From NCBI GenBank assembly GCA_000934665.2, contig JYFJ02002245.1, positions 1-60,269 on the forward strand: a stretch of DNA of 60,269 nt. Direction: 5' to 3'. Position numbers and translations under genes: made by a program. Below are positions 29,932 through 56,569 of this stretch, one piece after another. Below the pieces are notes generated by a model. The model saw only the letters and a list, made by a program, of their open reading frames with translations, was not told where the DNA came from and did no database searches. The DNA is from Catajapyx aquilonaris (Eukaryota). Each line of letters begins with the position of its first letter. Within the stretch, counting starts at the first letter, position 1.

Positions 29932-31217
29932 TTAATATGCATAAACTTTAATCTTGTTGTTTGCTGCCTGGAACTGAGCACAGCCCTCTGGGCTCGCGTC
30001 CAGCTTGCTGCAACAGTAGAGATAAAGGTACCGGAGGTTGTGGCATCTCCTCACCAGGTCTATGAGCGGGGATTTGGTGACCTCGTTGCTTCCCACCAAG
30101 CAGAAATCAGTCAGGAGAGGGCAGTTCATGGCAATGGCTGATATGCAACTGTCGTCAAGAATTGAGGAATAATAAAGGTAGAGCTTCTGCAGGCTACCCA
30201 CGACGTTCGGCTTGGAGAAAAATCTCTGCAGACCTTGTGCAGTGCAGGAGACGAAATTTATCAGGGTCAAGCTACGGAGGTTGTGCAGTTTCCCAATCCC
30301 GTCTTCCAGGCCAGCATCAGTTAGGTTCTCGCAGGATTGAAATTTCAGCTCCTCCAGCTGAGGGAAGTGTGCGAGGAGAAGGAAGGACTCCGGATTAATG
30401 AAGTGTTCGACCGTCAGTTTCCTCAGTTGGCCCCCTAGAGTGCAGCCGAGCACATCCACTTCCCTGTCAGCCATTTCCATGAGAAGCGACATACAGGTGA
30501 GTTTCAGCCAGTTTCTCCCAGTGGCCATGTCCGATGGTGGAGGAAACTCATCGCCAGATATGGTTATATCCTCCAGTTCCGGACAGGAATTCAAAATGTC
30601 CAGGGGATGCCTCGAATACTTGAGGCATAATATGCGGATGCGCTGCAGTTCACTGCACCTGCGTTGTAAAAATTAAATAACGAAATGTTGATAAATGACA
30701 CTTTAGGAGCCACTTCCCCCAAATATTAGTGTGTTATACTTACTTTCGTGTGATCAGTACCAGCATCTTCTGTGACACCACACTATCATGAATAATGAGG
30801 CCCTCCAGATGAGGAAGATTCTCCACTACGACTTTCTGCAGCGAATAAGCCTCCGCTCCATACCAGTTCATCAAAGTAACCGACTTCAGATGGGTTATGT
30901 TGCTGGTGACCACCTGCACCGTTTCCTCCAGAGTGAAGTGCTCGCGGTCAAAGGTCGCCTTATTCCTAATAAACCACTCCGTAGCCACCCTGCACCAATC
31001 CTCGCACACCAGTGGGACGGTGGTAAGGAGGGATTTCTTTGGCAGGTAGGAGAACACATTCGCCTTCATCTCGTCTGGCAGGTCGGCAAAGGTCTTGACG
31101 CTATCCTGCAATTGTCAAGATATTGCATATGTAAAAAGAGTAATGATCATTTTTAAGTGCAGGTATTGCGTGTCTGGGGCAGCCCCAGTTGGCTTCATGT
31201 CACCCTGCACTCACCAT
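29932..31217 (-). CDS. F-box/LRR array copy 1; exons ending ATG at 31215, 31105-30744, 30658-29932
   Basis: F-box FADLPDEMKANVFSYL..VCEDW, Cys-LRRs, conserved phase-0 and phase-2 GT-AG introns, open frame. Confidence 0.85.
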
Positions 31218-31534
31218 GGCTTCCACTTGACAGTGTCGCTGCCTTCCCTTGCTGTCCACCTTCCTCCTTGGCTTCTCCACCACTCTGCACAACAGGTGAA
31301 CAGGAGGACCCTCTTTGTCTTGGTGGAACTTGTCTTTGTCTCCTCAGCGATCCATCCAAAAAATTCGCTCGCCAACCCCCGTTGCCAAATTTCCCCCCTT
31401 TCGAAAACTTGCAGAACCCGGTTAAACCCTAAAAAATAGTGCAATAATACAAGATAATTAATCCAAATTGCATTTTGCAGGTTACATTAATTATGACAGT
31501 TCCTTTTTAGTGCAAATAATCCGAAATTTTGGTT

Positions 31535-31632
31535 GCGTCCGGATTTGCCGTGACGCGTTCTGTGGGTGTGTCCGAATATGGGCAGAAGGAACGGACCGGA
31601 AGCATAGGTCGGAACGCACCCAAGATGGCGGC
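31535..31632. promoter_or_regulatory. Conserved promoter-like block upstream of array copies; also at 33615-33710, 40399-40510, 50491-50587, 56216-56317
   Basis: CpG-rich gcgtccgga..gtgacgcg..gtgtccgaatat..ggaacgcacccAAGATGGCG. AAGATGGCG matches the YY1/Pho consensus. Lies 5' of exon 1. Confidence 0.55.
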
Positions 31633-31823
31633 TTGAGTTATCCATGAAAATTATATGCTATAATATTAATTTCTGGCCCTAATTAGAGCTCCTGCAGGGC
31701 GCCTGATGATCGGGACACTATGTTCATATTTCGTGAGCATAATAGGAGTTACATTCTCAGTAATTAGGGAAGCACTTGACCGCACATTTATCGTCCATTA
31801 CTGTTCTGTACTTTACGAACTCA

Positions 31824-33298
31824 TTACACGATGGAAATTTGGAGTGTGCTGCTGGCCGCCCGGAACTGACCCAGGGCCTCTGTGCTCAGCTTGTTGCACC
31901 AGATCAGCTGAAGTCGCCTGAGGTTGTGGCACCTCCTCACCAGGTCAAGGAGCGGGGCGTTGGTGACCTCGTCTGTTCTCTCCAAGCAGAGATGAGTCAG
32001 ACGAGGGCAGTTCGCAGCAATGGCTGATATGCAATTGTCGTCCAGAGTTGGGCAATGAGAAAGGCTGAGCGTCTCAAGGCTGCCGACAACGTTTGGCTTG
32101 GATAAAAACGCCTGCAACCCTTGTGCAGTGCAGTCGGATAAGTACAGCAGGGTCAAGCTACGGAGGTTGCGCAGTTTCCCAATCCCATCATGCAGAGCAG
32201 CGTCGGTTAGGTCACCACAGTATTGGATCTGCAGCTCCTCCAGCTGAGGGAAGCACCCAACGAGAAGGTAGGATTCTTGCTCACGGAATAAATCGATGCA
32301 GAGCTTCCTCAGCTGGCCCCCAAGAGTGCGGGCGAGCACTTCCACTTCCCTGTCTGCGCTGTCCATGATAAGAGACATTCTGGTGAGTTTCGGCCAGTTA
32401 CTCCCAGTGGCCATGTCCGATGGTGGAGGAAACTCGTCGCCAGATATGGTTATATCTTCCAGTTCCCAACAGGAATTCAAAATGTCCAGGGGATTCCTTG
32501 AATAGTTCAGGCATTCTAGATCGATGTGCTGCAGTTGGCTGCACCTGTGTCATAAAAATTAAATCATGAACTGAATGAAAAATGGTGCATTAAGCACTAC
32601 GTTCACCAAAAATACGCCCGTTACTTACTCTAGTGCAATCAGTTCCAGCATGTTCTGTGACACCGAGGTAACATCAACATTGAGATGCTTCAGATGAGGA
32701 AGATTTTGGGCTACTACTTTCAGCAGGGAATCTGAATCCTCTCCCTCCCAGTCAATCAGAGCAACTGACTTCAGACGGGTCCTGTTGCTGGTGACCACCT
32801 GCACCGATTCCTCCAGAGTGAAGAGCCAAAAGTCAAAGATCGCCTTATCCCTAAGGCCCAGCCACTCCGTAGCCACCCTGCACCAATCCTTGCACACCAG
32901 TGCGATGCTTGTACGGAGGGTATCATCCTCCAGGTACGAGAACACCTTTGCCTTCATCTCGTCAGGCAGGCTGGCAAAGGTCTTGATGCTAGTCTGAAAT
33001 TATCGTAATGATCATTTTCAGCACAGGTATCTTGTGTCTGGGCAGACCCGTCACCGAGATAATTAGCTTCATGTCACCCCGCACTCACCATGGCTTCTAC
33101 TGGACAATGTTGCTGGTTGCTGCCTGCCCTGTTTTCCACCTTTCTCCTTGGCTTCTCCTCCATCCCCCTGCCCATGTCCACCCTCCTTCTCTTCATGGCC
33201 CTCGTCTCCACAGTGTTCCTTCCCTTCTCCTCGGCCTCCCTCACCATCTTCGTCCTTCCAGTCTCCATCAATCCCCCTTCTTCCTTCCAACCTTCCAA
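31824..33298 (-). CDS. F-box/LRR array copy 2; exons 33298-33089, 32993-32629, 32544-31824
   Basis: Basic exon 1 (MKRRRV, NLS-like), F-box LPDEMKAKVFSYL, LRR exon, open frame. Confidence 0.88.
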
Positions 33299-33889
33299 TC
33301 ACTGGACCCGTAGGCCTCCAACAATCAACCCGCAACCCAACAAAGCCCGGCAACAATCGACCGGAATCAGGGGGAAAAAAGAATTCAAGAAAATAATTCA
33401 GAGGCGCCGAAATTCCATCGTTCCATTGTCGGCGGCCATCTTTGGATTTGCTCAACAAACCACTGTTGCCAAATTTCCCACAATTCGAAAACTATGCAGA
33501 CGCAGTTAAACCCTAAAAATAGTGCAACATTACGAGATATTAGCACAAATTGCTGGTTATGTCAATAATATAATAAAAGTTGCTTTTTAAGTTCAATAGA
33601 GCGAAATTTCGGTTGCGTCCGGAATTAGCGTGACGTGCCCTGTGGGTGTGTCCGAATATGAGCGGAAGGAACGGACCGGAAGCATAGGTCGGAACGCACC
33701 CAAGATGGCGCCCGACTCTTGAGCTATTATCCATGAAATTATGTGCGATGATATTAATTTCTGGCCCTAATTAGAGCTCCTACAGGGCGTCTGATGATCG
33801 CGACACGAAGTTAATATGTGGTAAGCATAGTAGGAGTTACATTCTCAGTAATTAGGGAAGCACAACATGAAAGCACATGTACGGTACGA

Positions 33890-34045
33890 ACTCATTGCAC
33901 GATGGAAATTTGGAGGGTGCTGCTGGCCGCCCGGAACTGACCCAGAGCCTCTGCGCTCAGGTCCAGCTGGCTGCAACTGATGAGCTCAAGGTGCCAGAGG
34001 TTGTGGGATCTCCTCACCAGCAGGGTGTTGGTGACCTCATCGCAT
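33890..34045 (-). pseudogene. Truncated 3' fragment of an LRR exon
   Basis: Homologous to 31824-31970 with deletions. Confidence 0.7.
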
Positions 34046-34310
34046 CTCACGCATCTGCGCCATCATTAATTCATTTGCCCTGATAAAGCTCGCACCAGAT
34101 TGTCCCCCAAAAAGGGCACTGACCTACAGCAAGGGGCTGTGAAATAAAAAAATAAAAGGGAACCGGCCGCATATTGATCATTTTCAATCATTACCACACA
34201 TTGCTTTAATGTCAATTCCAGGCGTACACTTTCAATACAGCCAAATGCGCATTGGGTGTACAAATTATCCCTGGTCATTCGACATGTGGATTCAGAATGT
34301 AAATTAAATA

Positions 34311-34542
34311 TAATAAATGGATACCCCGTGATAGGCCCCTTGGGCCGCTTAGGGGATCATCTTTTAAATAACCGACTTTAATCATTTGCCTGTAATGTGA
34401 TGGATTTTGATAGTGGGAGGAAACGGGAGAACCCGTCGAAACTCTATCCACATAAGTATATCCTCCGTCCGACCCGGGGATCGAACTCGGGACCTTAGAG
34501 GTGGAAGGCTGAGGCGCTAACCACTCCGCCACTGTGTCACCC
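34311..34542 (-). mobile_element. tRNA-derived SINE with 16-bp target-site duplication
   Basis: Minus-strand A box TGGCGGAGTGG and B box GAGTTCGATCC. Flanked by gaatgt(a/c)aattaaata at 34295 and 34543. Empty site at about 47030. Confidence 0.8.
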
Positions 34543-35662
34543 GAATGTCAATTAAATAAGGCACTGCAATCAGGCAAAGTATTGCAATCACAAGTTTAAC
34601 GAAAGTGACAATCAGTATGTACTATTAACCGCAAATGTAATGCAAATGGAACCACTAAAGGGATATGACCTGCCAAAATGACACGTAATTTTAATCGCAA
34701 TATTTTCTGGAGGTTATCTGCAGGTTCAGCGTTACATTGTAGAATTTAAAGCTACATTTTACATGTATGTGGGACGCATAATTAGAGAAATTATCTGGTT
34801 ATTGTAAACATCAGAATGGGAAAGTTCCCATTTTTTTACCTCGTCATTTCTCGTGACCCATAGCGGTTATCTTGTTAGAAAAATATGTCCCTGTGACCTT
34901 GACAAAATACGATCCTAAGTGCCAAATGTCGATTGTCTAGAGGAAAAAAATAATGTTGGGTGAACCGGTGAACCTAGTTGTATGATCTCACATGGAATTA
35001 CCCAAACTAGAAATAAAGTTGCACGAATAAGTAGTGCCGCCCTCAAACAGATACCAGGACTGTGCGGCCACTTGCGGGGACCATGCGGCCAAGGGACCGC
35101 GGCCGTGACCGGTGAGCAGAGGGTTGTGGATTCCGGACCATCGCCAAATAAACATATCCGTAACCTGCCAGCCCCCAGGATTACCAACGCATAAACACAA
35201 AAGCACATAAACAGTCGCGACATTACTTTTGCAGTTGATAGTACAGTACAACATAAGAAATGAATACTGGCCATGAAAACTGTCTGTTTCAAAAAGTAAG
35301 ATTATCTCGTAACAACTCAACCATCCTTACACATTGCAAATTCTATTAGGATTAGGATTAGCGTAACTGACGCAACAAACCTTGCCAAGTTGCGCCAGTT
35401 ACGACTTTCATATCTCGACTATTCCATGGCTCTGCTGCTATCTGGCAGCACAACGTTGCCATGCGCCTTCTTCGTCTGACAAAATGACATAATGATCTGC
35501 TTTGAATAAGTCATAGCCACCTCACAAGGGGCGACTGAATATTTGGATAGTGACTCTTCCGGAATGGAATTACCCTCCACCATAAGGGCTGTCCTTTTTT
35601 TTTTTTGGTTCATGTGCAACATGAAACTCTTAGGATGTGACGTTGTATCTGTGAGTGATGCG

Positions 35663-36972
35663 TCAATCAGGTGGAATCAGGCTGATGCATAAAATTTGAA
35701 GCTTGCTGTTCACAGCCTGGAACTGACCCAGGGCCTCTGCACTCACGTCCAGCTTCATGCACCACTTGAGTTGGAGGCGTTGGAGATTGCGGCACCTCCT
35801 CACCAGATCTAGGAGCGGGGCGTTGGTGACCTCGTGGCATTCCATCAAGTAGAAATGAGTCAGGAGAGGACAGTTTGCAGCAATTGCCGATATGCAACTG
35901 TCGTCCATAGTTGAGGAATCAAAAAGGCTGAGCTTCTGAAGGCTGCCGACCACGTTGGGCTTGGAGAAAAACCTCTGCAAACCTTGTGCAGTGCAGTGGT
36001 AGGAGTATCGCAGGGTCAAGCTACGGAGGTTGTGCAGTTTCCCAATCCCGTCTTCCAGGCCAGCATCAGTTAAGTGGAGGCAGAATTGGATTTCCAGCTC
36101 CTCCAGCTGAGGGAAGTGTGCGAGGAGAAGGAAGGACTGCGGCCTACTGAAGTATCCAACGATCAGTTTCCTCAGCTGGCCCCCAAGAGTGCGAGCAAGC
36201 ACTTTCACGTCCTTGTCTGTGTCGTCCATGGGGCAAAGCGACAAGCTCGTGAGCTTCGGCCAGTTTCTCCTGGTGACCTTGTTTGATGGCGCAGTAACCA
36301 CATAGCCAGATATGGTTAGATCCTCCAGTTTCTGACAGGACTTCAAAATGTCCAGGGGATGCCTCGAATAGTCACCCCAGCAGTAGGTGTCCAGCTGGAT
36401 GCGCTGCAGTTCACTGCACCTGTGATGTAAAAATTAAAATAATGAGCTAATGACACTTTAGGAGCTACTTCCCCCCAAAATTAGCGGGTTACTTACTCTC
36501 GTGTTATCAGTTTCAGCATATTCCATGACAGCGAGGTATTATGAATACTGAGGCGCCTCAGATGAGGAAGATTCTCGGCTACTACTTTCAGCAGCGAGGT
36601 ACAATCCTGTCCAAACCAGTTGATCATAGTAACCGACTTCAGATGGGTCCTGTTGCTGATGACCACCCGCACCGATTCCTCCCGAGTCAAGTCCCGACGG
36701 TCAAAGGTCACGTTATCCCTAACACCCAGCCACTCCGTAGCCACCCTGCACCAATCCTCGCACACCAGTATGATGATCGTACGGAGGGTCTTCTCTGGCA
36801 GGTAGGAGAACACCTTTGCCTTCATCTCGTCAGGCAGGTTGGCAAAGGTCTTCGCGCGGGCCTGCAATTGCAAAGGAATTGCTTATGTAAAAAAGAGTAA
36901 TGATCATTTTTTCAAGTACAGGCATTGCGTGTCTGGGGCAGCTGGCTTCATGTCGTATCCCGCACTCACCAT
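35663..36972 (-). CDS. F-box/LRR array copy 3; exons ending ATG at 36970, 36861-36497, 36419-35663
   Basis: F-box plus LRR exons open, conserved splice sites. Confidence 0.85.
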
Positions 36973-37029
36973 GGCTTCTACTGGACAATGTTGCTGGCTG
37001 CTGCCTTCCTTGTCCTCCACCTTCCTCCT

Positions 37030-37870
37030 ACGGAGTATTCCAGAGTGGCATTCCTCCAGGCAAAGACAAGTCAGGAGAAGGCAGTTCATGGCAATGGCTG
37101 ATGTGCAACCATCGTCCAGTGTTCGGCAATGAGAAAGGCTGAGCTTCTCAAGGCTACCCACAATGTTCGGCTTGGAGAAAAATCTTTGTACAGCCTGTGC
37201 AGTGCAGGACCTGAACGTTCCCAGGGTCAAGCTGCTATGGTTGCGCAGTTTCCCCATCCCGTCTTCCAGGCCAGCATCAGTTAAGTACTGGCAGGATTGG
37301 ATTTCCAGCTCCTCCAGCTGAGGGAAGTGTGCGAGGAGAAGGAAGGACTGCGGCTCATTGAAGGATTTAACCGTCAGTTTCCTCAGCTGTCCCCCCAAAG
37401 TACAGGCGAGCACCCCCACTTCCCTGTCTGCGTTGTCCATGGTAAGAGACACGTCGGTGAGTTTTGGGCAGTCTTGCCCGGTGGCCTTGTCTGATGGCGG
37501 AGGGATGTCCAGTGGATTCCTCAAGTAATATTATTCATCCTGTTGAAACAGCTCAGGTCGATTTCCTGTTGTTCGCTGCACCTGTGTCGTAAAAATAAAA
37601 GGAATGAACTGGCGATAAATGACACTTAACGCACCATATCAACCGTCCTTCACTCACTTTTGTGCAATCAGTTCCAGCATCGGCTGACGGTCAGCACTGG
37701 TGCGGTCACCCCAAAGCCATGCAGATGATACCAACACATATTTTCATTTTATTTTTCACCTTTTCCCGTGGCTTCTCTTCCATCCCCCTGCCCATGTCCA
37801 CCCCCTTCCTCTTCATGGCCCTTGTGTCCACAGTGTTTCAACCCTTCTCTTCAGATTCTGGCTTAACAAA
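37030..37870 (-). pseudogene. F-box-less, 3'-truncated LRR copy fused to exon 1 of copy 3
   Basis: ORF 36904-37524 reads from LRR into RRKVEDKEGSSQQHCPVEAM. Frameshift near 37530. F-box exon deleted. Confidence 0.75.
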
Positions 37871-38559
37871 ATAAATAAATAAATAAATAAATAAATAAAG
37901 CAACAAACTAGTTAGATCCGCCATCAGTTTGAAAATTCCCTTTCAAGCCAGACATGTTACGATCCATTTTGATCTGCGCCACCGTCAGTTCATTTGCCCT
38001 GATGGAGCTCGCACTTGATTGTTCATGAACAAACTGGAGTCTCGTGTCCCACAAAAAGAGCAGTGCCCTAGCAAGGGGCTGTGAAATAAGTGAATGAATA
38101 AATAAAAGGGAACTGGACGCATATTAATCACTTTCAATCATTACCGCACATTGCTTTAATTTCAATTCCAGGCGTACATTTTCAATACAGCCAAATGCGC
38201 ATACGGTGTACAAACTATCCCTGGTCATTCAACATGCGGATTCAGACACAACGCAGTATGGCAGTGATTGTCAGTTAAATAAGGCACTTCAGTCCTGCAA
38301 AGTATTGCAATCACACGTTGAACAAAGTGACAAACAGTGTGTTGGGAAAGTACAACATGAGAAATTAACAATTCCCATGAAAACTGATTGTTTCAAAAAG
38401 CATCTCAGTGACAACTGTTAACCTGAAGATTATCTCGTAAAAACTCAACCATCCTTACACATTTCAAATTCATACAGAAAATGAGTTTCACTTCCAACTC
38501 TTACATCCACCGTAAGGGCTGTACTCTTTTTTTGTTCATGTGCGACATGGAATTAGGAT

Positions 38560-40048
38560 TTAGGATACGTGACGCCGAGTGATGCGGTGCCCAGGTGCAG
38601 AAATGCGGAGGGTGCTGCTGGCCGCCCAGAACTGACCCAGGGCCTCTGCTCTGAAGTCCACCTTCCCGCAGTTGTTGAGTATGAGGTGCTGGAGGTTGCC
38701 GCATCGCCTCACCAGGTCAAGGAGCGAGGCATTGGTGACCTGGCTGCTTCTCATCAAGTAGAATTCAGTCAGGAGAGGGCAGTTCATGGCAATGGCTGAT
38801 ATGCAACTGTCGTCCACAATTGAGCAACGACCAAGGCTGAGCTTCTCCAGGCTACCCACAACGTTAGGCTTGGAGAAAAAAAATTTTAAAGCCTGTGCAG
38901 TGCAGGAGGGGAACTGGTACAGAGTCAAGCTACGGAGGTTGTGCAGTTTCCCAATCCCATCTTCCAGGCCAGCATCAGTTAAGTGGAGGCAGGAATATAA
39001 TTTCAGCACCTGCAGATGAGTGAAGTGTGCGAGGAGAAGGAAGGACTGCGGCTTCTTGAAGGATTCAACAGTCAGTTTCTTCAGCTGGCCCCCCAGAGTA
39101 CAGGCGAGCACCTCCACTTCCCAGTCAGCGTTGTCCATGAAAAGCGACACGTTGGTGAGCTTCGGCCAGTTTCTCCCGGTGACTTTGTTCGGTGGCAGAG
39201 AAACCTCAACGCCAGATATGATTATTTCCTCCAGTTCCCGACAGGAATTTAAAATGTCCAGGGGGTGTCTAGAATAGTCACTCCAGTGGAGGGCTCCTAG
39301 GTAGATGCGCTGCAGTTCACTGCACCTGCGATATAAAAATTAAATAATGAACTGATGGTAAATGACACTTTAGAAGCTACTTTAACCAAAAATTATCAGG
39401 TGACTTACTCTTGTGCAATCAGTTCTAGCACATTTTGTGACACCCGAGGTGACCCCAAATAATTGCTATAAATACTGAGGCGCTTCAGATGAGGAAGATT
39501 CTCGGCTACTACTTTCAGCAGCGAATCATGATCCTCTTCACTCCAGTTTCCCCTCAAAGTAACCGACTTCAGATGGGTCCTGTTGCTGGTGACCACCTGC
39601 ACCGATTCCTCCAGAGTGAAGTGCATGCGGTCAAAGGTGGCCTTACGCCTAATACCCATCCACTCCTTGGCCACCTTGAACCAATCCTTGCACACCAGCG
39701 TGCTCCTGTAGAAAGATTCCACGTCCAGGTACGAGAACACCTTTGCCTTCATCTCGTCAGGGAGGTGGGCAAAGGTCTTGACACTGGCCTGCAAAGAACA
39801 AAAATCAGTGCCACAGTTCCAGGCAAAAGGGTGATGGTCAGCACTGGTGCGGTCACCCCAAAGCCATGCACGTGACACCAGCATTTTTTTTTTTTTCTAT
39901 TTTATTTCACCTCTCCCTGTGGCTCCTCTTCTTCCTCCATCCCCCTGCCCATGTCCACCCTCCTTCTCTTCATGGCCCTCGTCTCCACCGTGTTCCAAGC
40001 CTTCTCTTCAGCATCCCTCACCATCTTCATCCTTCTGGTCTCCATCAT
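38560..40048 (-). CDS. F-box/LRR array copy 4; exons 40048-39911, 39788-39409, 39325-38560
   Basis: Open spliced frame, F-box HLPDEMKAKVFSYL..VCKDW, LRRs. Confidence 0.85.
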
Positions 40049-40559
40049 CTTGACTACCCTCCTCGCCCTTCCAACCACTGGATCCGGAGGCCTCCAACAA
40101 TCAACCCGCAACCCAACAACAAGGCCCGGCAGCAACAATCGACCGGAATAAGGGGAAAGGGGAATTTAAGAAAGTAATTCAGAGGCGCCGAAATTCGACC
40201 GTTCCATTGTCGGCGGCCATCTTGGACTTGCTCAACGAACCCCTGTTGCCAAATTTCTCGAAATTGGAAAACTATGGAGACGCAGTTAAGGCCTAAAAAT
40301 AATGCAATATTACGAGACAGTAACACAAATTGCCTCATGCAGGTTATGTAAATTATAACAGTTGCTTTTTAGTAGTGCAATAGAGCGAAATTTTGGGTGC
40401 GTCCGGAATTGGCGTGACGCGTCCTGCGGGTGTGTCCGAATATGAGCAGAAGGAACGGATCCAACGAGAACGGATCGGATGCATAGGTCGGAACGCGCCC
40501 AAGATGGCGGCTTGAGCTATCCATGAAATCACATGCGATAATAATTGTTCTGTGCCGTA

Positions 40560-40812
40560 CAAACTCATTACGCGATGGATATTTGATTCTCGAGGTTCCT
40601 TCGATAACGGAGGTAACCCCCAATCACTTACGGTTATTGTTGCTAGTTCGTGGCAAGGGCTCATAATGTCCCGGTAATGCTGCTTGGAGTAGCCTACTCC
40701 TCGAAATGATCTAGGTGGATGCGCTGCAGTTGGCTGCACCTGTGTCGTAAAAATTAAAATAATGAACTGATGATCAATGATGCTTTATGCACTACGTTCG
40801 CCACAAATCCGC
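40560..40812 (-). pseudogene. Internally deleted LRR exon plus intron 2 of a disrupted copy
   Basis: Acceptor and start of the LRR exon are joined directly to its 3' end. Confidence 0.7.
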
Positions 40813-42339
40813 TATCTTCATGTGTTTTTGTCATCAATGCCATATTCTCGTCGTGCTGCTTTTGCCCCTGCTGCAGCGCTTCTCTCTGTATGGCGATGAT
40901 ATCTTCCTTGACCCTTTCCGCTGCACTGCCTTTGAATTTCTTTTGCTTCTTGACTGGTCGATCAAGGTCTGAAATGATGGCACAGCACACTGTTATTTCA
41001 GTTAAGAGGATAGGCCTTAGACACTGCCTATTCAGTGTGTAAACATAATATGATGAGATTTTGCTGGGATTTAAATTAATACTGAAATTGTGGCTAAATT
41101 ATGGCCATACAGCATGTCACTTAACTGCATGCCTGCACATGCTGGTATCTCATATCTTCTGAAGGTAATGTCATGACTTCAGTCTTGCGCCGAGGTTACC
41201 TTTCACGTCTCAAATACAATTACATATAAAAAGATCCCTGTCTTGGAATACAGGTTATGCCCCTATAAATGAACCTGTCAAAGGAGGGCTTTGTCCCTTT
41301 AAGAAGGCGACTGACTGTGAGTCATACCAAGGTCATACCTGATGAGTCGCTTGGGCTAGCACTGGTTCTTTCACTGTTGTTGCTGCTAGCTTGGCTCCCT
41401 GTGGAGAGGAATGCATCAGTTGTAGCACTGTAACTTTAACCTTGGCCAATAAGGCAAGGAGCAAGCTTACCTCCAGCTCCAAGGATTGTGTCTTGGATTG
41501 CAAGTGGCTCCACGTTGGGCCTATCCCCCATTAACTCCTCCATCTCGTCCTCATATTCAAAATCCTTGCGCCCATTACCACTTGTGGAGTTGTGATCTCT
41601 TGTACGCTTAAATGCACTTTGGAGGGTCTTCCATCCGCCCATGACTTGATTGACTGAGAATTGCGTTCCTGCCGTGGCATTGACTGTCGTGGTGGTGAGC
41701 TGCCACAGGTTCTTTTTTTTGTACAGCGGGTTTTCCCACTTTTTACCCATCTCCTTTCTTGACTCCAGCAAAGCCAGTGTGGCAGAGCAATCCCAAACTA
41801 GAAAGAAAGGCAGCAACTTGTACTGTCAATTTTTAACACTCTCACTACAAGCATTCAGGCAACAGCATAATGCAGAGTGGCATGTAATGGGAATTTTTGT
41901 GACGACGTCTCGACTGACTCGACGCCCAATAAAATACAATGAATTAAATACGGCCTACCTGTGCCTGCTGACTGCCTTGTCGGTGTCCCTGCCTCGTCCG
42001 TCTCCTCACAATCACCTGCGAATAACAGGCCACGTGGTTAAAGGTTGCCTATAAATTTACTCATGTGCACTTACTTAGCTCATCGACTACGCCTTCCATT
42101 GAACTTGCGCCTTCTTCTGCCCCTTCTTCACTACTTGCACTCTGGGGGCGGCACTGGTGTTCCGCTTCATCAGCAATAAACTCCAGGCAAATAGCGCAGT
42201 ATTGGAACGCGTAGGACGCCATTGTCGGGTTCGGGAGCAGTCTTTCCCGTGGCCACTTCTTGTCACGAATCATGGAATCAGGCTCTGATTTTTCCGGTGT
42301 CTTTGCCTGGACCTCTGAGACACCCAACCCACCAGCAAC
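40813..42339 (-). other. Multi-exon Myb/SANT-like (trihelix/MADF-type) gene fragment, possibly from a PIF/Harbinger transposon
   Basis: VWDCSATLALLE...KKKNLWQ...FSVNQVMGGWKTLQSAFKRTRDHNSTSGNGRKDFEYEDEMEELMG at 41797-41471. Phase-1 exons at 42339-42075 and 42015-41959. Coiled-coil-like exon at about 40968-40813. Confidence 0.7.
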
Positions 42340-43056
42340 CTGAAACAAAATCAGATTGTCGCACATTGAATCATGGGGCCATGTGAAAATTAATGTGACA
42401 GTTCCATGCAAAATGATTGGCTGATGGTCACCACTGGTGCGGTCACGCCAAAGCCATACAGATGATACCATGACAAATTTTCATTTTATTTTCCACCTTT
42501 TTCCGTGGCTTCTCCTCCACCCACCTGCCCATGACTACCCTCTTTCTCTTCATGGCCCTTGTCTCCACAGTGTCCCAACCCTTCTCTTCAGCTTCTGGGT
42601 TAACAACAATCTAGTTACATCCGCCGTCAGTTTGAAAATTCCCTTTCACGCCAGACGTGTTATGATCCGTTTTGATCTGCGCCATCATTAATTCATATGC
42701 CTTGAAGAACCTCGCACTTGATTGTTCATGTACAAACTGGAGTCTTGTGTCCGCCAAAAAGGGCACTGGCCTAGCAAGGGGCTGTGAAATAAAATAAATA
42801 AAAGGGAACTGGCCACATAATAATAATTTTCAATCATTACCGCACATTGCTTTAATTTCAATTCCAGGCGTACATTTTCAATACAGTCAAATGTGCATTC
42901 CGTGTACCAGCACGTGGATTCAGACACCACACAGTACAGCAGTAATTGTCAATTAAATAAGGCACTGCAATCCTGCAAAGTATTGCAAGCACAAGTTTAA
43001 CAAAAGTGACAAACAGTATGTTGGGAATGTACAACATGAGAAATTAACAATGGCCA

Positions 43057-44280
43057 TTAAAAAGGATAAATTTGAACCTTGCTGTTCGCTGCCTGGAACT
43101 GAACCAGGGCCTCTGGGCTCAGGTCCAGCTTGCTGCACTGGTTGAGCTCAAGGTGGCGGAGGTTGCTGCATCTCCTCACCAGGTCTAGGACGGAGGCGTT
43201 GGTGACCCCGTTGGTCTTCACCAAGTTGAAATGAGTCAGAAGAGTGCAGTTCATGGCAATGGCTGATATGCAACTGTCGTAAAGAGCTGAGCAATAAGAA
43301 AGGCTGAGCTTCTCCAGACTACCCACAACGTTTGACTTGGAGAAAAACCTTTCTAAAGCCCAAGGAGTGCAGGACAGGAACATTCCCAGGTTCAACCTAC
43401 GAAGGTTGTGCAGTTTCCCAATCCCTTCTTCCAGGCCAGCATCAGTTATGTGGAGGCAGCATTGGACTTCCAGCTCCTCCAGCTGAGGGAAGTGTGCGAG
43501 GAGAAGGAAGTACTCCGGATTATGGAAGCATCCAAGCGTCAGTTTCCTCAGCTGGCCCCCTAGAGTGCAGGCGAGCACCTTCACTTCCCTGCCAGTCAAG
43601 CTGTCCATGAGAAGCGACATCGTAAAAATTAAATAATGAACTGATGATAAATTGACACTTTAGGAGCTACTTTCACCAAAAATTATTGGGTTACTTACTC
43701 ACGTGTGATCAGTTCTAGCACATTCTGTGACACGTAAGTATCACGAATACTGAGGCGCTTCAGCTGAGGAAGATTCTGGGCTACTACTTTCATCAGCGAA
43801 TCAGCCTCCTCTCCCTCCCAGTTCCTCAAAGTAACCGACTTCAGATGGGTCCTGTTGCTGGTGACCACCTGCACCGATTCCTTCAGAGTGAAGTGCTGAC
43901 GATCAAAGATCGCCTTGCCCCGAAGATCCAGCCACTCCGTAGCCACCTTGCACCATTCCTTGCACACCAATGCGATGCTCGTACGGAGGGTATCAGCGAA
44001 TTAGAATTTGCTACACTCCGGTCTATCAAAGTAACCCATTTCAGATAGGCCCTGCTTCTCTTGATCATACACACCCATTCTTTCGGAGTCAATTTCTGGC
44101 CGTCCAAGGTCGCCTTCTTCCTGAGACCCAGCCATTTCTGGGCCACCCTGCACCAGTCCTTGCACACCAGTGCGACACTCATCGTACGGAGGGTATTCTC
44201 CTTCAGGTCCCAACCCTTCTCTTCAGCTTCTCTCAGCATCTTAAGCTGGCTTAACAACAAACTAGTCACATACGCCATCA
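43057..44280 (-). pseudogene. F-box/LRR array copy 5, broken
   Basis: The LRR-exon acceptor and first codons are deleted at 43620. Two partial F-box exons are joined out of frame near 43990. Confidence 0.75.
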
Positions 44281-45230
44281 GTAAAATAATTCCCTTTCAC
44301 TCCAGACATGTAATGGTTCATTTTGATCTGCGCCATCATTAATTCATTTGCCCTGATGAAGCTCGCACTTGATTGTCCCCCAAAAAGGGCACTGACCTAT
44401 AGCAAGGGGCTGTGAAATAAAAAAATAAAAGGGAACTGGCCGCATATTCATCATTTTCAATCATTACCACACATTGCTTTAATGTCAATTCCAGGCGTAC
44501 ATTTTCAATACAGTCAAATGCACATTCGGTGTACAAACTACCCCTGGTCTTTCAGCATGTGGATTCAGAATGTAAATTAAATATACTAAATTTGCAACTT
44601 ATATTTATTGCAAATGGCAAATGTTAATGGGAAGGGAATTTAAAATGATTCGCATGCGGGTGCATCCTGGTAGCTTATTGCCATCTCTTTATCATTTTCC
44701 AACAGTAACTTGAATGGACTCTGTAAATAATTATTCATGTAATGTAACTGACCCAACATGAACAGGATAAGCTCTTTGGGGGGTGATGTAATGACGTGAA
44801 ACCCTGTCAGCCGAATGTGTTTAGAAGTAAAGTTACAACTGATATGCAATCTACTCCTCGGGAGCAATTTTGCGATTACTTTAGATCACGCCTGTTCTTA
44901 TTCATATTTTCAGGAGAAATTAGGATTAGCATAACTGACGCAACAAACCTTGCGAAGTTGCGTCATCTACGACTATCATATCTCGACTGTTCCATGGCTC
45001 TGCTGCTATCTGGCAGCACAACGTTGCCATGCGCCTTCTTCGCCTGACAAAATGACATAATGATCTGCTTTGAATAAGTCATAACCCCCTCACAAGGCGC
45101 GACTTAATTTTTGGATAGTGACTCTTCCGGAATGGAATTACCCTCCACCATAAGGGCTGTCCTTTTTTTTTTTTGGTTCATGTGCAACATGAAACTCTTA
45201 GGATGTGACGTTGTATCTGTGAGTGATGCG

Positions 45231-46533
45231 TCAATCAGGTGGAATCAGGCTGATGCATAAAATTTGAAGCTTGCTGTTCACAGCCTGGAACTGACCCAGG
45301 GCCTCTGCACTCACGTCCAGCTTCGTGCACCACTTGAGTTGGAGGCGCTGGAGATTGCGGCATCGCCTCACCAGGTCTAGGAGCGGGGCGTTGGTGACCT
45401 CGTGGCATTCCATCAAGTAGAAATGAGTCAGGAGAGGGCAGTTTGCAGCAATTGCCGATATGCAACTGTCGTCCACAGTTGAGTAATTCATAAGGCTGAG
45501 CTTCTCAAGGCTGCCGACCACGTTGGGCTTGGAGAAAAACCTCTGCAAACCTTGTGCAGTGCAGTGGCAGGTGTATCGCAGGGTCAAGCTACGGAGGTTG
45601 TGCAGTTTCCCAATCCCATCTTCCAGGCCAGCATCAGTTAAGTACAGGCAGAATTGGATTTCCAGCTCCTCCAGCTGCGGGAAGTGTGCGAGGAGAAGGA
45701 AGGACTGCGGCTTATTGAAGTATCCAACGATCAGTTTCCTCAGCTGGCCCCCGAGAGTGCGAGCAAGCACTTTCACTTCCCTGTCTGTGTCGTCCATGGG
45801 GCAAAGCGACAAGCTGGTGAGTTTCGGCCAGTTTCTCCTGGTGACCTTGTTTGATGGCGCAGTAACCACATAGCCAGATATGGTTAGATCCTCCAGTTTC
45901 TGACAGGACTTCAAAATGTCCAGGGGATGCCTCGAATAGTCACCCCAGCGGTAGGTGTCCAGCTGGATGCGCTGCAGTTCACTGCACCTGTGTTGTAAAA
46001 ATTAAAATAATGAGCTAATGACACTAGCTACTTCCCCCAAAAATTAGCCGGTTACTTACTCTCGTGTGATCAGTTGCAGCATATTCCGTGACACCGAGGT
46101 ATTATGAATACTGAGGCGCCTCAGATGAGGAAGATTCTCGGCTACTACTTTCATCAGCGAAGCAGCATCCTTTCCTTTCCAGTTCCTCACAGTAACGGAC
46201 TTCAGATGGGTCATGTTGGTGATGACCACATGCACCGATTCCTCCCGAGTCAAGTCCAGACGGTCAAAGGTCACCTTATCCCTAACACCCAGCCACTCCG
46301 TAGCCACCCTGCACCAATCCGCGCACACCAGTATGACGCTCCTACGGAGGGTCTTCTCTGGCAGGTATGAGAACACCTTTGCCTTCATCTCGTCAGGCAG
46401 GTCGGCAAAGGTCTTGACGATGGCCTGCAATTGTCAAGAGATATGTAAAAAGAGTAATGATCATTTTTTCAGGTACAGGTATTGCGTGCCTGGGGCAGCC
46501 CCAGTTGGCTTCATGTCACCCTGCACTCACCAT
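45231..46533 (-). CDS. F-box/LRR array copy 6 (recent duplicate of copy 3); exons ending ATG at 46531, 46424-46060, 45987-45231
   Basis: Open frame. The LRR ORF has the same length as copy 3 and is nearly identical. Confidence 0.85.
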
Positions 46534-47949
46534 GGCTTCTACTGGACAACGTTGCTGGTTGCTGCCTGCCTCGTTCTTCACCTTTCCTCCTTGGCTTCTC
46601 CTAACACGCTGGGTGCCAACTACTCGACGCTACGATGGAAAGTTAGAAACACTCTCCCAGTGACCTTGCAGTGACCCAGCACTTTATATAGGCAGCCATC
46701 TTGAATTCCTTCGACACACTCGAAAAATTCCCCCACCAAAACCAGGTGGTGATGGCCTTGGTGATGGCCTTGGTGATGGCCACCACTTGATTGTTCATGT
46801 AATACAAACTTGGGAGTCTTTCATCCCCCAAAAAGGGCACTGGCCTACCAAAGGGGCTCAGTCAGAAATAAATAAACAAATAAATAAAAGGGAATAACTC
46901 GTGGCATATTATATAATCAATTTCAATCATTATACCACACATTAATGTCAATTCCAGGCGTACATTTTCAATACAGCCAAAATGCGCATTTCGTGTACAA
47001 ACTATCCCTGGTCTTTCAACATGTGGATTCAGAATGTCAATTTAATAAGGCACTGCAATCATGGAAAGTATTGCAATCACAAGTTTAACGAAAGTGACAA
47101 AGAGTATGTACTATTAACCGCAGAAGTAATGTCGCAAGATGAGGAACATTTTGAAGGCAACCGTTTCAACATAGAGCGTACAATGGAAATACTAAAAAAT
47201 TCCCATTGTTGTGCAAAAAGGGCACATTTCAGGTGGCCCAATGAAATTGTTAGCCGCATGCTAAGAGTATGAAATTAAAGTGGTGAGTATACACACATGG
47301 TCATCTACTCATTACCCCTGAAGGGATATGACCTGCCAAAATGACACGTAATTTAAATCTCAATATTTTTTGGAGGTTATTTACGGGTTCGGAGTTACAT
47401 TGTAGAATATTAAGCCCCATTTTGCATGTATGTGGGACGCATAATTAGAGAAATTATCCTTGTAAACATCAGAATGGAAAGGTTCCCATTTTTTACCCCG
47501 TCATTTCTTGTGACCTGTAGCGGTTATCTTGTTAGAAAAATATGTCCCTCTGACCTTGACAAAATACGGTCCTAAATGACAAATGTCGATTGGCTAGAAA
47601 AAATATGTCGGGTGAACATAGTGGTATGATCTCACATGGAATTACCCAAACTAGAAATAAGTTGCACGAATAAGTAGCGGCGACATTACTTTTGCGGTTA
47701 ATAGTACAAAAGAAATTAATCCTGGCCATGAAAAGGATTGTTTCAAAAAGTAGATTAGTTACAACTGTTAACCTGAACATTATCTCGTAACAACTCAACC
47801 ATTTGTACACATTTCAAATTCCTACAGATAACCAGTTTCACTTCAAACGCATTACATCCACCATACGTGCTGTAATTTTGTTCGTTTGTTTGTTCATTTA
47901 TGCAACATGGAATTCTTAGGATGTGACGTTGTAACTGTGAGTGATCCGT

Positions 47950-48330
47950 CAAAGATGTCCAGTGGATTCCTCAAGTAATTATTCGTCCTGTCGAAACGGC
48001 TTAGGTCGATTTCCTGTAGTTCGCTGCACCTGTGTCATAAAAATAAAAGGAATGAACTGGCAATAAATGACACTTAACGCACCATATCAACCCTCCTTTA
48101 CTGACTTTTGTGCAATCAGTTCCAGCATCGGCTGATGGTCAGCACTGGTGCGGTCACCCCAAAGCCATACAGATGACACCTACACATATTTTAATTTTAT
48201 TTTTCACCTTTTCCCGTGGCTTCTCCACCTCCCTGCCCATGTCCACCCTCTTTCTCTTCATGGCCCTTGTCTCCACAGCGTCACAACCCTTCTCTTCAGC
48301 TTCTGGTTTAACAACAAGCTAGTTACATCC
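47950..48330 (-). pseudogene. Exon-1 plus partial LRR-exon remnant lacking the F-box exon
   Basis: Paralogous to 37500-37870. Confidence 0.65.
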
Positions 48331-48784
48331 GCCGTCAGTTAAAAAATTCCCTTTCACGCCAGACATGTTACGATCCATTTTGAACTGCGTCATCATTAAC
48401 TCATTTGCCCTGATGAAGCTTGCACTTGATCGTTCATGTACAAACTGGAGTCTTGTGTCCCCCAATAAGGGCACTGCCCTGGCTAGGGGCTGTGAAATAA
48501 ATGAATTATTAATTAATAAAAGGGAACATATTAATCATTTTCAATCATTACCGCATATTGCTTTAATTTCAATTCCAGGAGTACATTTCCAATACACCCA
48601 AATGCGCATACAGTGTACAAGCTATCGCTGGTCATTCAACATGTGGATTCAGACACCACGCAGTATGGCAGTGATTGTCAATTAAATAAGGCACTTCAGT
48701 CATGCAAAGTATTGCAATCACAAGTTGAACAAAGTGACAAACAGTATGTTGGGAAAGTACAACATGAGAAATTAATACTGGCCA

Positions 48785-50088
48785 TTATAATGCAGAAATT
48801 TGAACCTTGCTGTTCGCTGCCTGGAACTGAGCCCAGGCCTCTGGGCTCAGGTCCAGCTTGCTGCACCACCAGAGATGAAGGCCCTGGAGGTTGCGGCATC
48901 TTCTCACCAGGTCTAGGAGCGGGGCGTTGGTGACATGGTTGTTTCTCACCAAGCAGAAATGAGTCAGGAGAGGGCAGTTTGCAGCAATGGCTGATATGCA
49001 ACTGTCGTCAAGAGTTGAGCAATAAGAAAGGCGGAGATTCTCAAGGCTGCCGACCACGTTGGGCTTGGAGAAAAACCTTTGTAAACCCTGTGCAGTGCAG
49101 GAGGGGATCTCCGATAGGATCAAGCTACGTAGGTTGTGCAGTTTCCCAATCCCGTCTTCCAAGGCAGCATCAGTTAGGTACTCGCAGTATTGGATTTCCA
49201 GCTCCTCCAGCTGAAGGAAGTGTGCGAGGAGAAGGAAGCACTCCGGATTGGTGAAGTAATCAACCTCCAGTTTCCTCAGCTGGCCCCCCCAGAGTAAAGG
49301 CGAGCACCTCCACTTCCCTGTCAGGGTTGTGTCTGAGAAACGACACGCTGGTGAGTTTCGGCCAGTTTCTCCCGGTGATCTTGTTCGATGGCGGAGTAAC
49401 CACTTTGGCACATATGGCTATTTCCTCCAGTTCCCGACAGGAATTCAAAATGTCCATGGGAGGCCTTGAAAAGTAATTCATGCCGACTATATCTAGGTAG
49501 AAGTGCTGCAGTTCACTGCACCTGTGTTGTAAAAATTAAATAATGAACTGATGATAAATGACACTTCAGGAGCTACTTCCCCCAAAAATTAGCGGGTTAC
49601 TTACTCTTGCGCAATCACTTCCAGCATATCCTGTGACACCGGGGAATTATAAATACTGAGGCCCTTCAGATGAGGAAGATTCTCGGCTACTACTTCCAGC
49701 AGCGAGTCACCATCCTCTCCATACCAGTTCCTCAAAGTAACCCACTTCAGACGGGTCCTGTTGCTGGTGACCACCTGCACCGATTCCTCCAGTGTTAAGT
49801 CCAGATGGTCTAAGGTGGCCTTACGCCTAATACCCAGCCACTCCTTGGCCACCCTCAACCAATCTTTGCACACCAGCGTGCTCCTGTAAAGGGATTCCTT
49901 CTCCAGGTACGAGAACACCTCTGCCTTCATCTCATCAGGCAGGCTGGAAAAGGTCTTGGCGCTATCCTGCAATTGTCAAGAGATTGCTTGAGTACGTAAA
50001 AAGAGTTATAATTATTTTTTCAAGTACAGGCATTGTGTGTCTGGGGGGGCAGCCCCAGTTGGCTTCATGTCCACCCTGCACTCACCAT
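48785..50088 (-). pseudogene. F-box/LRR array copy 7 with a +1 frameshift in a C run (pseudogene or sequence error); exons ending ATG at 50086, 49966-49605, 49521-48785
   Basis: C7 at 49284-49290 versus C6 in copy 4. The frame switches at TLGG|QLRKL; otherwise intact. Confidence 0.75.
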
Positions 50089-50877
50089 GGCTTCCACTCG
50101 ACAATATGTTGCTGCGGTTTGCTGCCTTCCTTGTCCTCCACCTTCCTCCTTGGCTTCTCCAAACACCCTTGAACCCTGTGGGGGTTCCGGATCGACCTTC
50201 TGTCCTCCCAACAATCAAGCCTCAACCGATCTGCGGCTGGCCAACAATCAACCGAGACCCGAAAGAAGAAGAATAACAATCAAAAAGTTACAAACGAAAT
50301 TCGAACTGTCCATTGTCGGCGGCCATCTTTGGATATCATTCGGTACACTGTTGCCAGATAACCGGATAGAGTTAAACCCGACAAAATATAGTGCAATGAT
50401 ACAATCCGTTTTATAAAAATATGCAAATTTGTGCATTTAATAAATTAAATGGCTGCTCATTACCTGACTTCATTAGCGAAATTATGGACCGCGTCCGGAT
50501 TTGCAGTGACGCGTCGTGTGGTTGTGTCCGAATATAATGAGAAGGGAACGGACCGGATGCGGCGGTGGGAACGCGCCCAAGATGGCGTCCGATATATTTG
50601 TTGATTTTTTAAGTTGTCGCGAGGGTCTATTTAGCTCAAGAATCTGGTGATTTGCAAGGCCTTTTGGCACGGGTTTTGCACTATCGAAGAGTGGGACATG
50701 GTTTGCAAGATTGTACGTGATCCAGTTCGACCACTCCACAAGCCCTAGGAGCGCAAGATAGTAATGTACTAACACCAAGTCCTACCATCCGGCACGTGCC
50801 TCTTTGGTATGTAGTGTCAAACGTGTGGAAATGAAGATATTAATTTTTGTGGTCCTTGCATTTTACAGTGGTTTAAA

Positions 50878-52452
50878 ATGCCCACTTGCGGGATACCATT
50901 CTGCAGGTCCGGCTATGCTGGCACAACAGCAAAAAACAAGTGGAAAGGGATTCGCCATCCGTCACTTTTCAGACCAAAAAGTCAGGTACGTAAACACGTG
51001 TGTGGCTGCACCCAACTGAAATATTATTAAGAGTATTATTGCACTTGGAATAACAGCCATCGTTGTTACTTTCTTGGCTTCTATAAGCTTATCTACCTTA
51101 ACTTCGTGTGGAAGGAAAGGGGCTATTGAACCTTACGACGGAGGGAGGGAAATACATAATTTTTTCTCGTTTCAATGCAAACTTATCAGTTACGTAGGTT
51201 ACATTCAGTAAGGTATGTAGTCTGCGAGTTATTGACCAGTGCTCCAGATATTTTCCTTTTTGGTCGTGACGAGATGATCGGGAGAACCGCAAGTTCCACA
51301 AATTTTAGTTCAGCTTCTCTCCTAGGCTCTGGGAAGTTCGGGGGTAGGTCACGGAGGGTAGGCAGTAAGAGTCCCAGGGAAATGTCGTGATGGTGATCAT
51401 GATGATGAGGTTTGAACATTAACCTAACATTTTCTTCTACACTATAGATCCACAACTGAAGTGACAAAGACATGCACAAGCATATGTATATCGTCAGGTC
51501 GTGACTCAATGCAGGCCTTTGATAATTAGGAGTGAAGAAATAACATCCGGAAACAGAATGAAAACTTTGTTATGCATCTCATTATGTGCAAGACGCTAAC
51601 ACCGATCTTTACTATTTGCAGGATGAAGCTGACAGGTGGAACAGAAGGGCAAAGGTTGATCCTCCACTGACACTGAAAACATCTGTGTGTGGACTGCATT
51701 TCAGGGAGGAGGACATTAGAAGTCCATGCGACACGATAACAATAAAACCCGGCATCCGAGACAGGGAGGGTAATGTGGTCCCTCAAGGAACAGTTGTAGC
51801 GACGTTAAGTAGGGTAAAGAAATCCTTGGTACCAGGAGCTGAACCATGTATATTTGAAGGGTATCCACAATACCTGCTGAATCGGCCTCCGCAACGAAAG
51901 AGGAAAGCACCAAAAGTCCGCAATGCCACAGGCATTTAAAAAATTGCACTTCCACATCCCCAACTACCTCTTCCCACGGTCGCTGCTGAAAGTGACACAC
52001 GGATCCATGAACTGCAAGCACCCCAATCTGATGAATCTGTGGCCGGTGGGAATGGTGTTCCTTGGTCAACAGAAAAAGTGAAAATGTAAATGCGAAACCC
52101 TCAATGGAACACATTTGAGTTTGACAATCACGTGGCAATAATTCATCTCACGCCGAAACTCGTTATGGACAAGACAATTACCATTCAAGGAAACAAGCCT
52201 CCCATCGTAACTATAAATGGAGTGGAAGTTATTCAAGGGACCGCAAACAATGTGAAAACTGTGGAAGAGGTGTCGAAACTGCTGGAGAAGTTGGAAGAGA
52301 CGAGAGCCTGCATTGGAACTGGGTTACGGAACAATCAATTCAGCTTCTCTTGCTCAGGTGCTGTGGAGTCAAAGTGTAGACGAAGATGTGACCAGTGCAT
52401 GCTCTTGAAGGAAAGGGAAAGGAAATTGTCTGACAGGATAAAAAGAAAATGA
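50878..52452 (+). mobile_element. THAP-domain gene / truncated P-element-like transposase N-terminus, copy A; exons 50878-50985 and 51622 onward, stop at 51939 with degraded continuation
   Basis: Spliced MPTCGIPFCRSGY...SLFRPKSQ|DEADRW...VCGLHFREEDI...SLVPGAEPCIFEGYPQYL gives the C2CH THAP signature with an AVPTIF-like box. No catalytic domain seen. Confidence 0.8.
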
Positions 52453-55808: not shown

Positions 55809-56569
55809 GTAAACAAGTAATATTCTTTTAAAGTACAGGTATTGTGAGTCTCTGCGGCCCAGTCACCGAGGTAATTAGCTTCATGTCATCCCGCACTCAC
55901 CTTTGCTTCCACTCGACAACGTAGGTTGATGCCTCCCATGGCCCCACACGAGCCTCCTTCTCCTCCCGAGTCTTGGCCTCAGCTTCTGGTCTTCCTGTTG
56001 CCTTCCCCTAGCCCACATCCTGGGCACCCAACCCACCAGCAATAATCTGAAAAGGAAATCAGTGCAACTTGTGGCGGTCTGGATATTTCCTCGTAATGGA
56101 ACGGATCCGGTTGAACCGGACAAATGGTGCCCAATCATGCAATTCCAGATTTGCACATTACATTAATTAATGGTTGCTCATTACCTGACATTCATTATCA
56201 TCATAATTATGGGCTGCGTCCGGATTTGCCGTGACGCGCATATTATGTGGTTGTGTCCGAATATGATGAGAAAGGGAACGGACCGGATGCGGCGGTCGGA
56301 ACGCACCCAAGATGGCGTCTCATGTTGATTGATTTAGCTCGATTTAGCTCAATTGATTTGCACGGCCTTTTGGCACGGGTTTTGCACTATCGAAGAGTGG
56401 GACATGGTTTGCAAGATTGTACATGATCCAGTTCGACCACTCCACAAGCCCTAGGGGCGCACGATAGTAATGTACTAACAACAGTCCTACCATCTGGCAT
56501 GTGCCTCTTTGGTATGTCAAACGTGTGGAAATGAAGATATTAATTTTTGTGGTCCTTGCATTACAGTAA

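Follow-up and report, generated by a model that had tools for sequence, protein, structure and literature searches.

A probable recent tandem pair of F-box/LRR genes in Catajapyx aquilonaris and diversifying selection at variable repeat positions of its family

Related F-box families and the c35/c45 genes

In F-box receptors with leucine-rich repeats (LRRs), the F-box binds Skp1 and the repeats bind the substrate, mainly on their concave side (PMC7729025). F-box families of nematodes and plants combine tandem expansion, birth and death of copies, a conserved F-box and a substrate-binding part under positive selection, and a role against pathogens has been proposed for them (PMC8665587, PMC8120010). 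The KSS/KSL F-box antidotes to selfish toxins of C. tropicalis are clustered and have fast-evolving solenoids, and paralogues of 84% identity are target-specific (PMC12680543). In the Hessian fly, the SSGP-71 family comprises F-box/LRR effectors that are delivered into plants (PMC4617103), and an expanded F-box family has been reported from a springtail genome (PMC6389355). Drift has been argued for fast-evolving F-box families (PMC5041008), and it is still debated whether such proteins act as immune receptors, serve as antidotes to selfish genes or have arisen by drift (PMC5041008, PMC12680543). Here we describe two F-box/LRR genes, c35 and c45 (copies 3 and 6 of a tandem array), of Catajapyx aquilonaris. 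The window, meaning the whole stretch of 60,269 nucleotides that was analyzed, is one entire contig (JYFJ02002245.1, numbered C1039) of a 286-Mb genome assembly of 20,583 contigs (GCA_000934665.2). The selection signal in the family to which the genes belong is strong, and that of the pair itself is modest, as far as comparison of the sequences can tell.

The FBXL receptors (FBXL2, FBXL17, SKP2/FBXL1, FBXL3 and FBXL5) were the top sequence and fold matches, and they share with c35 and c45 the N-terminal F-box and the C-terminal solenoid of LxxLxLxxCxxL repeats. Neither gene is the orthologue of any of them (18-22% identity in fold alignments to FBXL2, SKP2 and FBXL17), and both genes lie within a large lineage-specific family whose variable stripe is located at the strand end and in the following loop, whereas PMC7729025 places binding mainly on the concave face. 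This family has undergone a large tandem expansion accompanied by pseudogenes (148 exon-3 matches, 150 F-box matches and broken copies) and, with purifying selection on the F-box and positive selection on the binding domain, it fits the unstable F-box type. It differs from the families described in the Caenorhabditis and plant papers in belonging to an arthropod and in using LRRs as the binding domain, where the nematode types carry FTH or FBA, and a single Skp1 match was detected in the genome as against 20-23 skr genes in Caenorhabditis. Clustering and fast-evolving solenoids are shared with KSS/KSL, and the combination of F-box and LRR is shared with SSGP-71. In contrast to the antidotes, no toxin gene linked to c35 or c45 was identified, although no search was aimed at one. 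Unlike the SSGP-71 proteins, c35 and c45 have no hydrophobic N-terminal segment, and other members of the family have basic N-terminal extensions; a secretion signal was sought by hydropathy scan only, in which the best 11-residue N-terminal window scored -0.03 (c35) and 1.01 (c45). A literature search that covered few subscription papers and no supplements found no study of site-level selection in an expanded arthropod F-box/LRR family. The signal at individual sites described here extends to an arthropod LRR family a pattern already known in worms and plants. The pair itself is an ordinary young duplicate and the interest rests with the family. Two 90%-identical proteins that differ at 16 stripe residues would provide a compact test of a specificity shift.

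In the spliced model, c35 and c45 are three-exon F-box/LRR genes of 374 amino acids (aa) each (Table 1). An earlier note on this DNA had described two 227-aa LRR open reading frames (ORFs); each is part of the last exon, the c35 ORF being the TTG-started portion (from 36346) of exon 3, and the F-box exon, the introns and the upstream loss of c35 had been overlooked. Of 50 exon-2 matches examined, 15 were excluded before counting as broken, partial or without exon 3; the remaining 35 open copies, located in the window and on 12 other contigs, share the splice sites (GT-AG) and phases. No GT-AG joint was present among the joints listed for the sequencing-run contigs. Most family members have no ATG at the position of the c35 ATG, the corresponding exon being a longer coding exon, and the longer basic N-terminal exons of most members are missing from both c35 and c45. 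A universal one-codon first exon was considered and dropped, as the ATG is limited to one subclade.

The LRR part contains 12 registered repeats that conform to the consensus LxxLxLxxN/CxxL. When the exon-3 profile was compared with solved structures, FBXL2 ranked first (1e-32), followed by FBXL17 (9e-24), and the AlphaFold2 model of exon 3 is an LRR solenoid of alternating strands and helices with FBXL2 as the top fold match. Strands in this model span repeat positions 3 to 7-9, so that positions 7-8 correspond to the strand end and 10-11 to the following loop. A word-based protein search with exon 3 returned 0 of 890 candidates at E<=0.001. A profile search of 1.84 billion representatives returned generic LRR proteins, with the end-to-end F-box/LRR layout in one of the best 150 (P0047). 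This 386-aa unnamed protein, located on a 1356-base Logan contig, was the closest end-to-end public relative among the matches listed.

Table 1. Coordinates (window numbering) of the array, the duplicated blocks and the parts of c35 and c45
Feature	Position	Strand	Details
Tandem F-box/LRR array	29932..60144	-	7 copies with open exon 2 + 3; 1 frameshifted (c49); fragments c34, c37, c43, c44, c48
Duplicated block, copy A	34053..38360	-	~4.3 kb; three collinear pieces at 87-94%; alignment
Duplicated block, copy B	44326..48775	-	alignment
c35 ATG	36970..36972	-	immediately 5' of splice donor; final codon of truncated first exon (remnant 37029-36970)
c35 exon 2	36497..36861	-	F-box and first three LRR strands; GT-AG boundaries kept across family
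c35 F-box	36736..36846	-	PF12937 (F-box-like), 27.1 bits, cut-off 24.3
c35 exon 3	35663..36419	-	LRR solenoid through stop codon; holds 227-aa ORF; spliced model
c45 start ATG	46531..46533	-	5' of splice donor; 32 open codons upstream without in-frame ATG
c45 exon 2	46060..46424	-	F-box and first three LRR strands; spliced model
c45 F-box	46299..46409	-	PF12937, 30.8 bits, cut-off 24.3
c45 exon 3	45231..45987	-	LRR solenoid through stop codon; AlphaFold2 predicted local distance difference test (pLDDT) 90.6, predicted template modelling score (pTM) 0.89; best fold match FBXL2 6o60_C
Identical tract, c35 side	35542..35756	-	215 bp; last 30 codons (from codon 345), stop, 3' flank; p=1.5e-4 (uniform), 0.005 within exon 3 + flank
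Identical tract, c45 side	45110..45324	-	215 bp; partner of c35 tract
c37 pseudogene	37030..37850	-	deletion of F-box exon; premature stop in exon 1; frameshift of 2 nt
c48 pseudogene	47857..48300	-	same F-box-exon deletion as c37; different later exon 3 deletion
Promoter-like motifs upstream of c45	46682..46703	-	AAGATGGC box and TATA-like box; absent before c35

Selection at the variable repeat positions

Tests on the family were performed with 33 copies, c35 and c45 being left out, and each class of repeat positions was compared with its own silent rate. At positions 7, 8, 10 and 11 the silent rate was 1.01 and the nonsynonymous rate 2.70, which gave a dN/dS ratio (omega) of 2.67 (likelihood ratio test [LRT] statistic 92), with individual values of 4.9, 2.4, 2.4 and 1.8, respectively; omega was 0.61 at positions 2, 3 and 5, 0.44 at the core positions 1, 4 and 6, and 0.51 in the F-box. 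The p value of 1e-21 for the class 7, 8, 10, 11 withstands the 495 ways of picking 4 of 12 positions. The signal persisted on segment-specific trees (omega 5.2 for repeats 228-335 and 2.0 for 127-205). In a tree-free check, the proportion of nonsynonymous differences (pN) at these positions exceeded that of silent differences (pS) in 9 of 10 other sister pairs (p<=0.001 each), the sole exception (L002/L020) resembling an allele pair, and the pooled sister pairs had a pN of 0.292 against their own pS of 0.114. Hypermutation is disfavoured because it would raise the silent rate, which was not raised. With dN/dS at positions 7, 8, 10 and 11 being 2.7 relative to their own silent rate, these sequence comparisons lend good support to diversifying selection on the family.

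Site models (M1a/M2a and M7/M8, in our own implementation and not PAML) placed about 19-20% of codons at omega 2.7, with an LRT of about 500 with or without the pair and of 95-303 on the segment trees. Two points weigh against reliance on these models. The site-model LRTs are liberal, as values of 67-280, compared with 522 observed, were reached in neutral simulations that included tree discordance and rate variation among sites (1 of 6 null runs without convergence), and because of this we did not regard the values near 500 as proof. In addition, when the silent rate of each site was left free in a grid, the gain over beta<=alpha was only 9.6 log units.

The genes c35 and c45 align over 1686 bp with 93.5% DNA identity (35351-37029 and 44919-46591) and are the closest gene pair among the window copies, the next pair having 85.7%. 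The earlier note had called the flanks nearly identical as well; this applies to only 312 bp on the downstream side and 57 bp on the upstream side, beyond which they differ. Between the two proteins, 36 of 374 residues are different, 22 of them encoded by exon 2 and 14 by exon 3. All five motif pairs listed previously (YFSRP/YFNKP, CLHLT/CLYLT, RYSYH/RYTCH, LSLFDSSTM/LSLMNYSTV and WCMK/WCTK) were present; they begin at codons 212, 236, 260, 286 and 342 of the spliced model and contain 10 of the 14 changed exon-3 codons. Eleven of these 14 changes are at LRR positions 7-12 (strand end and next loop; 54 of 251 codons), with 8 at positions 7, 8, 10 and 11, and 3 at the classic concave-face strand positions (xxLxLxx). 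The exon-3 changes lie at columns that vary among the 33 other members (mean entropy of 2.11 as against 1.18; p=1e-4 by permutation; 10 of 373 columns, 31, 186 and 367-374, were left out of the alignment), all 36 changes likewise favour variable columns (p=3e-5), and the 13 silent changes show no such preference (p=0.89). The clustering is real. The earlier note had the pair differing mostly at variable LRR positions, which is valid for exon 3 but not for the gene as a whole, where 16 of 36 changes are at positions 7-12, because 22 of the 36 are in the F-box exon; pN in exon 2 was about four times that in exon 3 (27/264 vs 15/540, p=3e-5).

Neutral divergence of the pair was estimated from pS (0.054), the introns (9/100 and 3/72), the 3' flank (13/312), the upstream pseudogene block (66/811) and the downstream block (16/266), giving a pooled value, silent sites included, of 124/1870 or 0.066. 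At positions 7, 8, 10 and 11 of the whole gene, pN was 0.135 and pS 0.055 (p=0.007; p=0.008 against pooled neutral divergence), an excess of about twofold. Silent changes in the stripe were not raised (0.035). Sites picked by the model without the pair gave a pN of 0.112 (p=0.025) for the whole gene and 0.077 (p=0.26) for exon 3 alone.

Other results weigh against selection acting within the pair. For exon 3 only, pN at positions 7, 8, 10 and 11 was 0.109 and not significant (p=0.07 against silent sites, 0.11 against pooled neutral divergence); the classic concave-face class showed no excess (pN 0.051 for the whole gene, 0.039 for exon 3), and the exposed class chosen a priori (2, 3, 5, 7, 8, 10, 11) was not significant (pN 0.088, p=0.10-0.15). 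The ratio pN/pS of the pair over the whole gene is about 1 (0.052/0.054), and the exon-2 scaffold is unconstrained (17/217, pN 0.078 vs neutral 0.066), whereas the exon-3 scaffold is conserved (6/409). Moreover, the pair tests were several and uncorrected, and the class 7, 8, 10, 11 was chosen from the family data. The test proposed in the earlier note, namely concave face against scaffold and introns, was negative for the concave face and not significant for the LRR ORF; change by selection, as suggested there, was borne out for the family, moderately for the pair as a whole, and not significantly for the LRR ORF alone. The evidence for selection from the pair itself is modest.

A change of specificity after duplication would be compatible with these differences, and at 90% identity it is plausible because the 84%-identical KSS/KSL paralogues are target-specific (PMC12680543).

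Origin of the pair and alternative explanations

A 4.4-kb block appears to have been copied about 10 kb away, because the pseudogenes c37 and c48, which precede c35 and c45, lack the F-box exon through one shared deletion, and another collinear piece, the third (94%), lies 3' of both copies; later deletions differ between the two blocks. In c35 the upstream region has been lost except for the 57 bp next to the ATG. The c37 LRR exon continues in frame into this ATG, with 156 codons open from the internal ATG at position 37440, behind the 2-nt frameshift. One contig of sequencing run X2 contains the c37/c35 junction without change; its c35 side measures 30 letters, one below the bridging threshold. 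It is conceivable that c35 has been rewired behind the pseudogene exon, possibly as an LRR-F-box-LRR chimera. The AAGATGGC box found before c45 is also present upstream of three other copies; the c45 motifs may represent a promoter, and the box may be of the YY1 type.

Taken together, c35 and c45 are probably recent tandem paralogues in a birth-and-death array, with recurrent selection on the family and a modest share of it in the pair. In the proposed sequence of events, the recent copying of the 4.4-kb block inside the F-box/LRR array would have given rise to c35 and c45. The F-box would dock on the single Skp1 detected in the genome and the LRR solenoid would pick the substrate for ubiquitination by the Skp1-cullin-F-box (SCF) ligase, the stripe at the strand end and loop serving as the binding edge. 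This stripe may have been reshaped by recurrent selection against changing targets, most likely proteins of parasites, viruses or selfish elements. The pair would carry a modest share of this selection over a loosely constrained exon 2, its differences being point mutations and not imported patches, with conversion having only erased differences at the 3' end. Of the two, c45 would have retained a promoter-like region, and c35, which lost it, may not be expressed or may be transcribed from the preceding pseudogene. As for the purpose of the family, defence against parasites or viruses was judged plausible at somewhat less than even confidence, action on host substrates can be entertained tentatively, and genetic conflict seems doubtful. 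Equally tentative is the broader proposal that, independently of nematodes and plants, this arthropod lineage assembled hundreds of F-box/LRR adaptors into an intracellular, antibody-like repertoire, which would work through one Skp1 to destroy proteins of parasites, viruses or selfish elements, and in which c35 and c45 might represent a specificity switch in progress (about 16 residues) with c35 being rewired.

The strongest alternative, considered unlikely, is that the family is under selection while the pair merely drifts: tolerant sites change, the scaffold is purged, and c35 is promoterless and starting to decay. It would account for exon-3 variable sites that are not significantly above neutral divergence, for the near-neutral exon-2 scaffold, for the absence of anything beyond 57 bp upstream of the c35 ATG, and for the more numerous changes on the c35 branch, which include 14 nonsynonymous changes at conserved sites compared with 9. 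The c35 branch carries more changes of both kinds, however, and its ratio is not raised because its silent changes are also more numerous (10.7 vs 5.4). Drift also leaves unexplained the twofold whole-gene excess given above and the occurrence of stripe changes on both branches, with 10.4 and 8.5 nonsynonymous changes as against roughly one silent change per branch, and it sits poorly with frames and splice sites that are intact in both copies.

Recombination in the family was examined next to the proposal that gene conversion from other members brought in the clustered differences as short patches. Trees of three segments reject one another (approximately unbiased [AU] test, p<=0.001) as well as the tree of the whole gene (p<=0.007), and by this measure the family is mosaic through recombination. 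Such recombination, the presence of several changes of 2-3 nt in neighbouring codons, and the incomplete sampling of copies (148 of 345 candidates scored) are what patch conversion would have in its favour. No donor was found, however: none of the 33 paralogues was closer to c35 or c45 than the pair's own distance in 7 cluster windows (with a tie at 258-266), and the rarer alleles were frequently private or common to a different set of copies at each site. A GENECONV-like run test was significant for 0 of 595 pairs at silent sites and for 5 of 595 at all polymorphic sites, and the two significant all-site runs that involve c35 (codons 233-259) are mostly within a conserved stretch. With silent changes in the stripe not raised either, patchy conversion from other copies, which had been put forward as one cause of the clustering, is very improbable. 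The 215-bp identical tract (Table 1) is probably a recent conversion between c35 and c45 that removed differences; over the same region, 16 of 206 sites distinguish c35 from the related flank of c59. The gene c59 is about 92% like c35/c45 at its 3' end and flank (58598-59020), and its coding region is from another clade, which is indicative of an older recombination.

That c35 and c45 are allelic versions of a single locus, placed in tandem through an assembly error, is highly unlikely, and tandem paralogues are likelier than haplotypes: the neutral divergence of the pair (0.066) does equal that of likely haplotigs elsewhere in the assembly, and no sequencing-run contig spans both copies, but the two copies are on a single gap-free contig, high identity is confined to 4.4 kb (the next collinear genes, c39/c49, have 81%), the two blocks bear different deletions, and depth on the flanks equals that of the spacer. 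Identity alone does not separate the two cases, because the likely haplotigs are 92-95% alike, a divergence of 5-8% that is the same as that of the pair and so counts against paralogy. In run X2, contig depth was 23.3 and 23.9 on the unique flanks and 17-27 in the spacer; this check, named beforehand as one that could reveal uncollapsed haplotypes, favours paralogues but is a weak test, since X1-X3 are possibly from the assembled sample. In a second sample (X5), three contigs matched c45 and its flanks without any difference, and none for c35 was among those listed.

Short contigs collinear with longer ones at 92-98% were likely alternative haplotypes (L021 on C13631 vs window 57635-59020, L020 vs L002, and L016 vs L011). 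L011 and L016 are strongly different at the stripe (ratio 3.7) and, if allelic, would be divergent alleles. C13631 was considered as a third close copy of the pair and rejected, as it matches the c59 flank.

The array and neighbouring sequence

At least 150 F-box matches are present in the genome (150 scored among 371 candidates, all 150 above the cut-off), and the 148 exon-3 matches were scored among 345 candidates. Within the array, c49 (49260-49966, minus strand) has a frameshift near 49285, and c34, c43 and c44 are fragments only. A distant two-exon F-box/LRR gene with about 30% identity to the array copies is located at 3905-5063 (minus strand).

The remaining genes of the window include a parvin gene (615-3069), an exon of which finds its best matches, at about 57-67%, among crustaceans, dragonflies and other insects, C2H2 zinc-finger genes (7199-7972 and 19223-20941), a GMC oxidoreductase gene (9837-12787) and a long single ORF resembling an ionotropic receptor (13337-15499; Lig_chan match below cut-off). 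A Pfam scan of the ORFs at 21983-23368 gave no matches.

A tRNA-like repeat of the short interspersed nuclear element (SINE) type, labelled by eye, is located at 34320-34540, with a summed DNA contig depth of 52,000-93,000 compared with 20-50 for unique contigs; an Rfam scan of 33000-48500, this repeat included, matched no family. The spacer between c39 and c43 (40754-42480) contains a Myb/SANT-like DNA-binding ORF piece (41436-41825; PF13837 above cut-off), possibly a remnant of a Harbinger-type transposon. A 2.6-kb spacer is duplicated with 86% identity (50424-53031 and 56146-58643), and the plus-strand ORF pieces in the two copies (51562-51939 and 57205-57642) matched no Pfam family. A 1-kb inverted duplication of 95.6% identity is located at 26232-27234 and 27561-28572.

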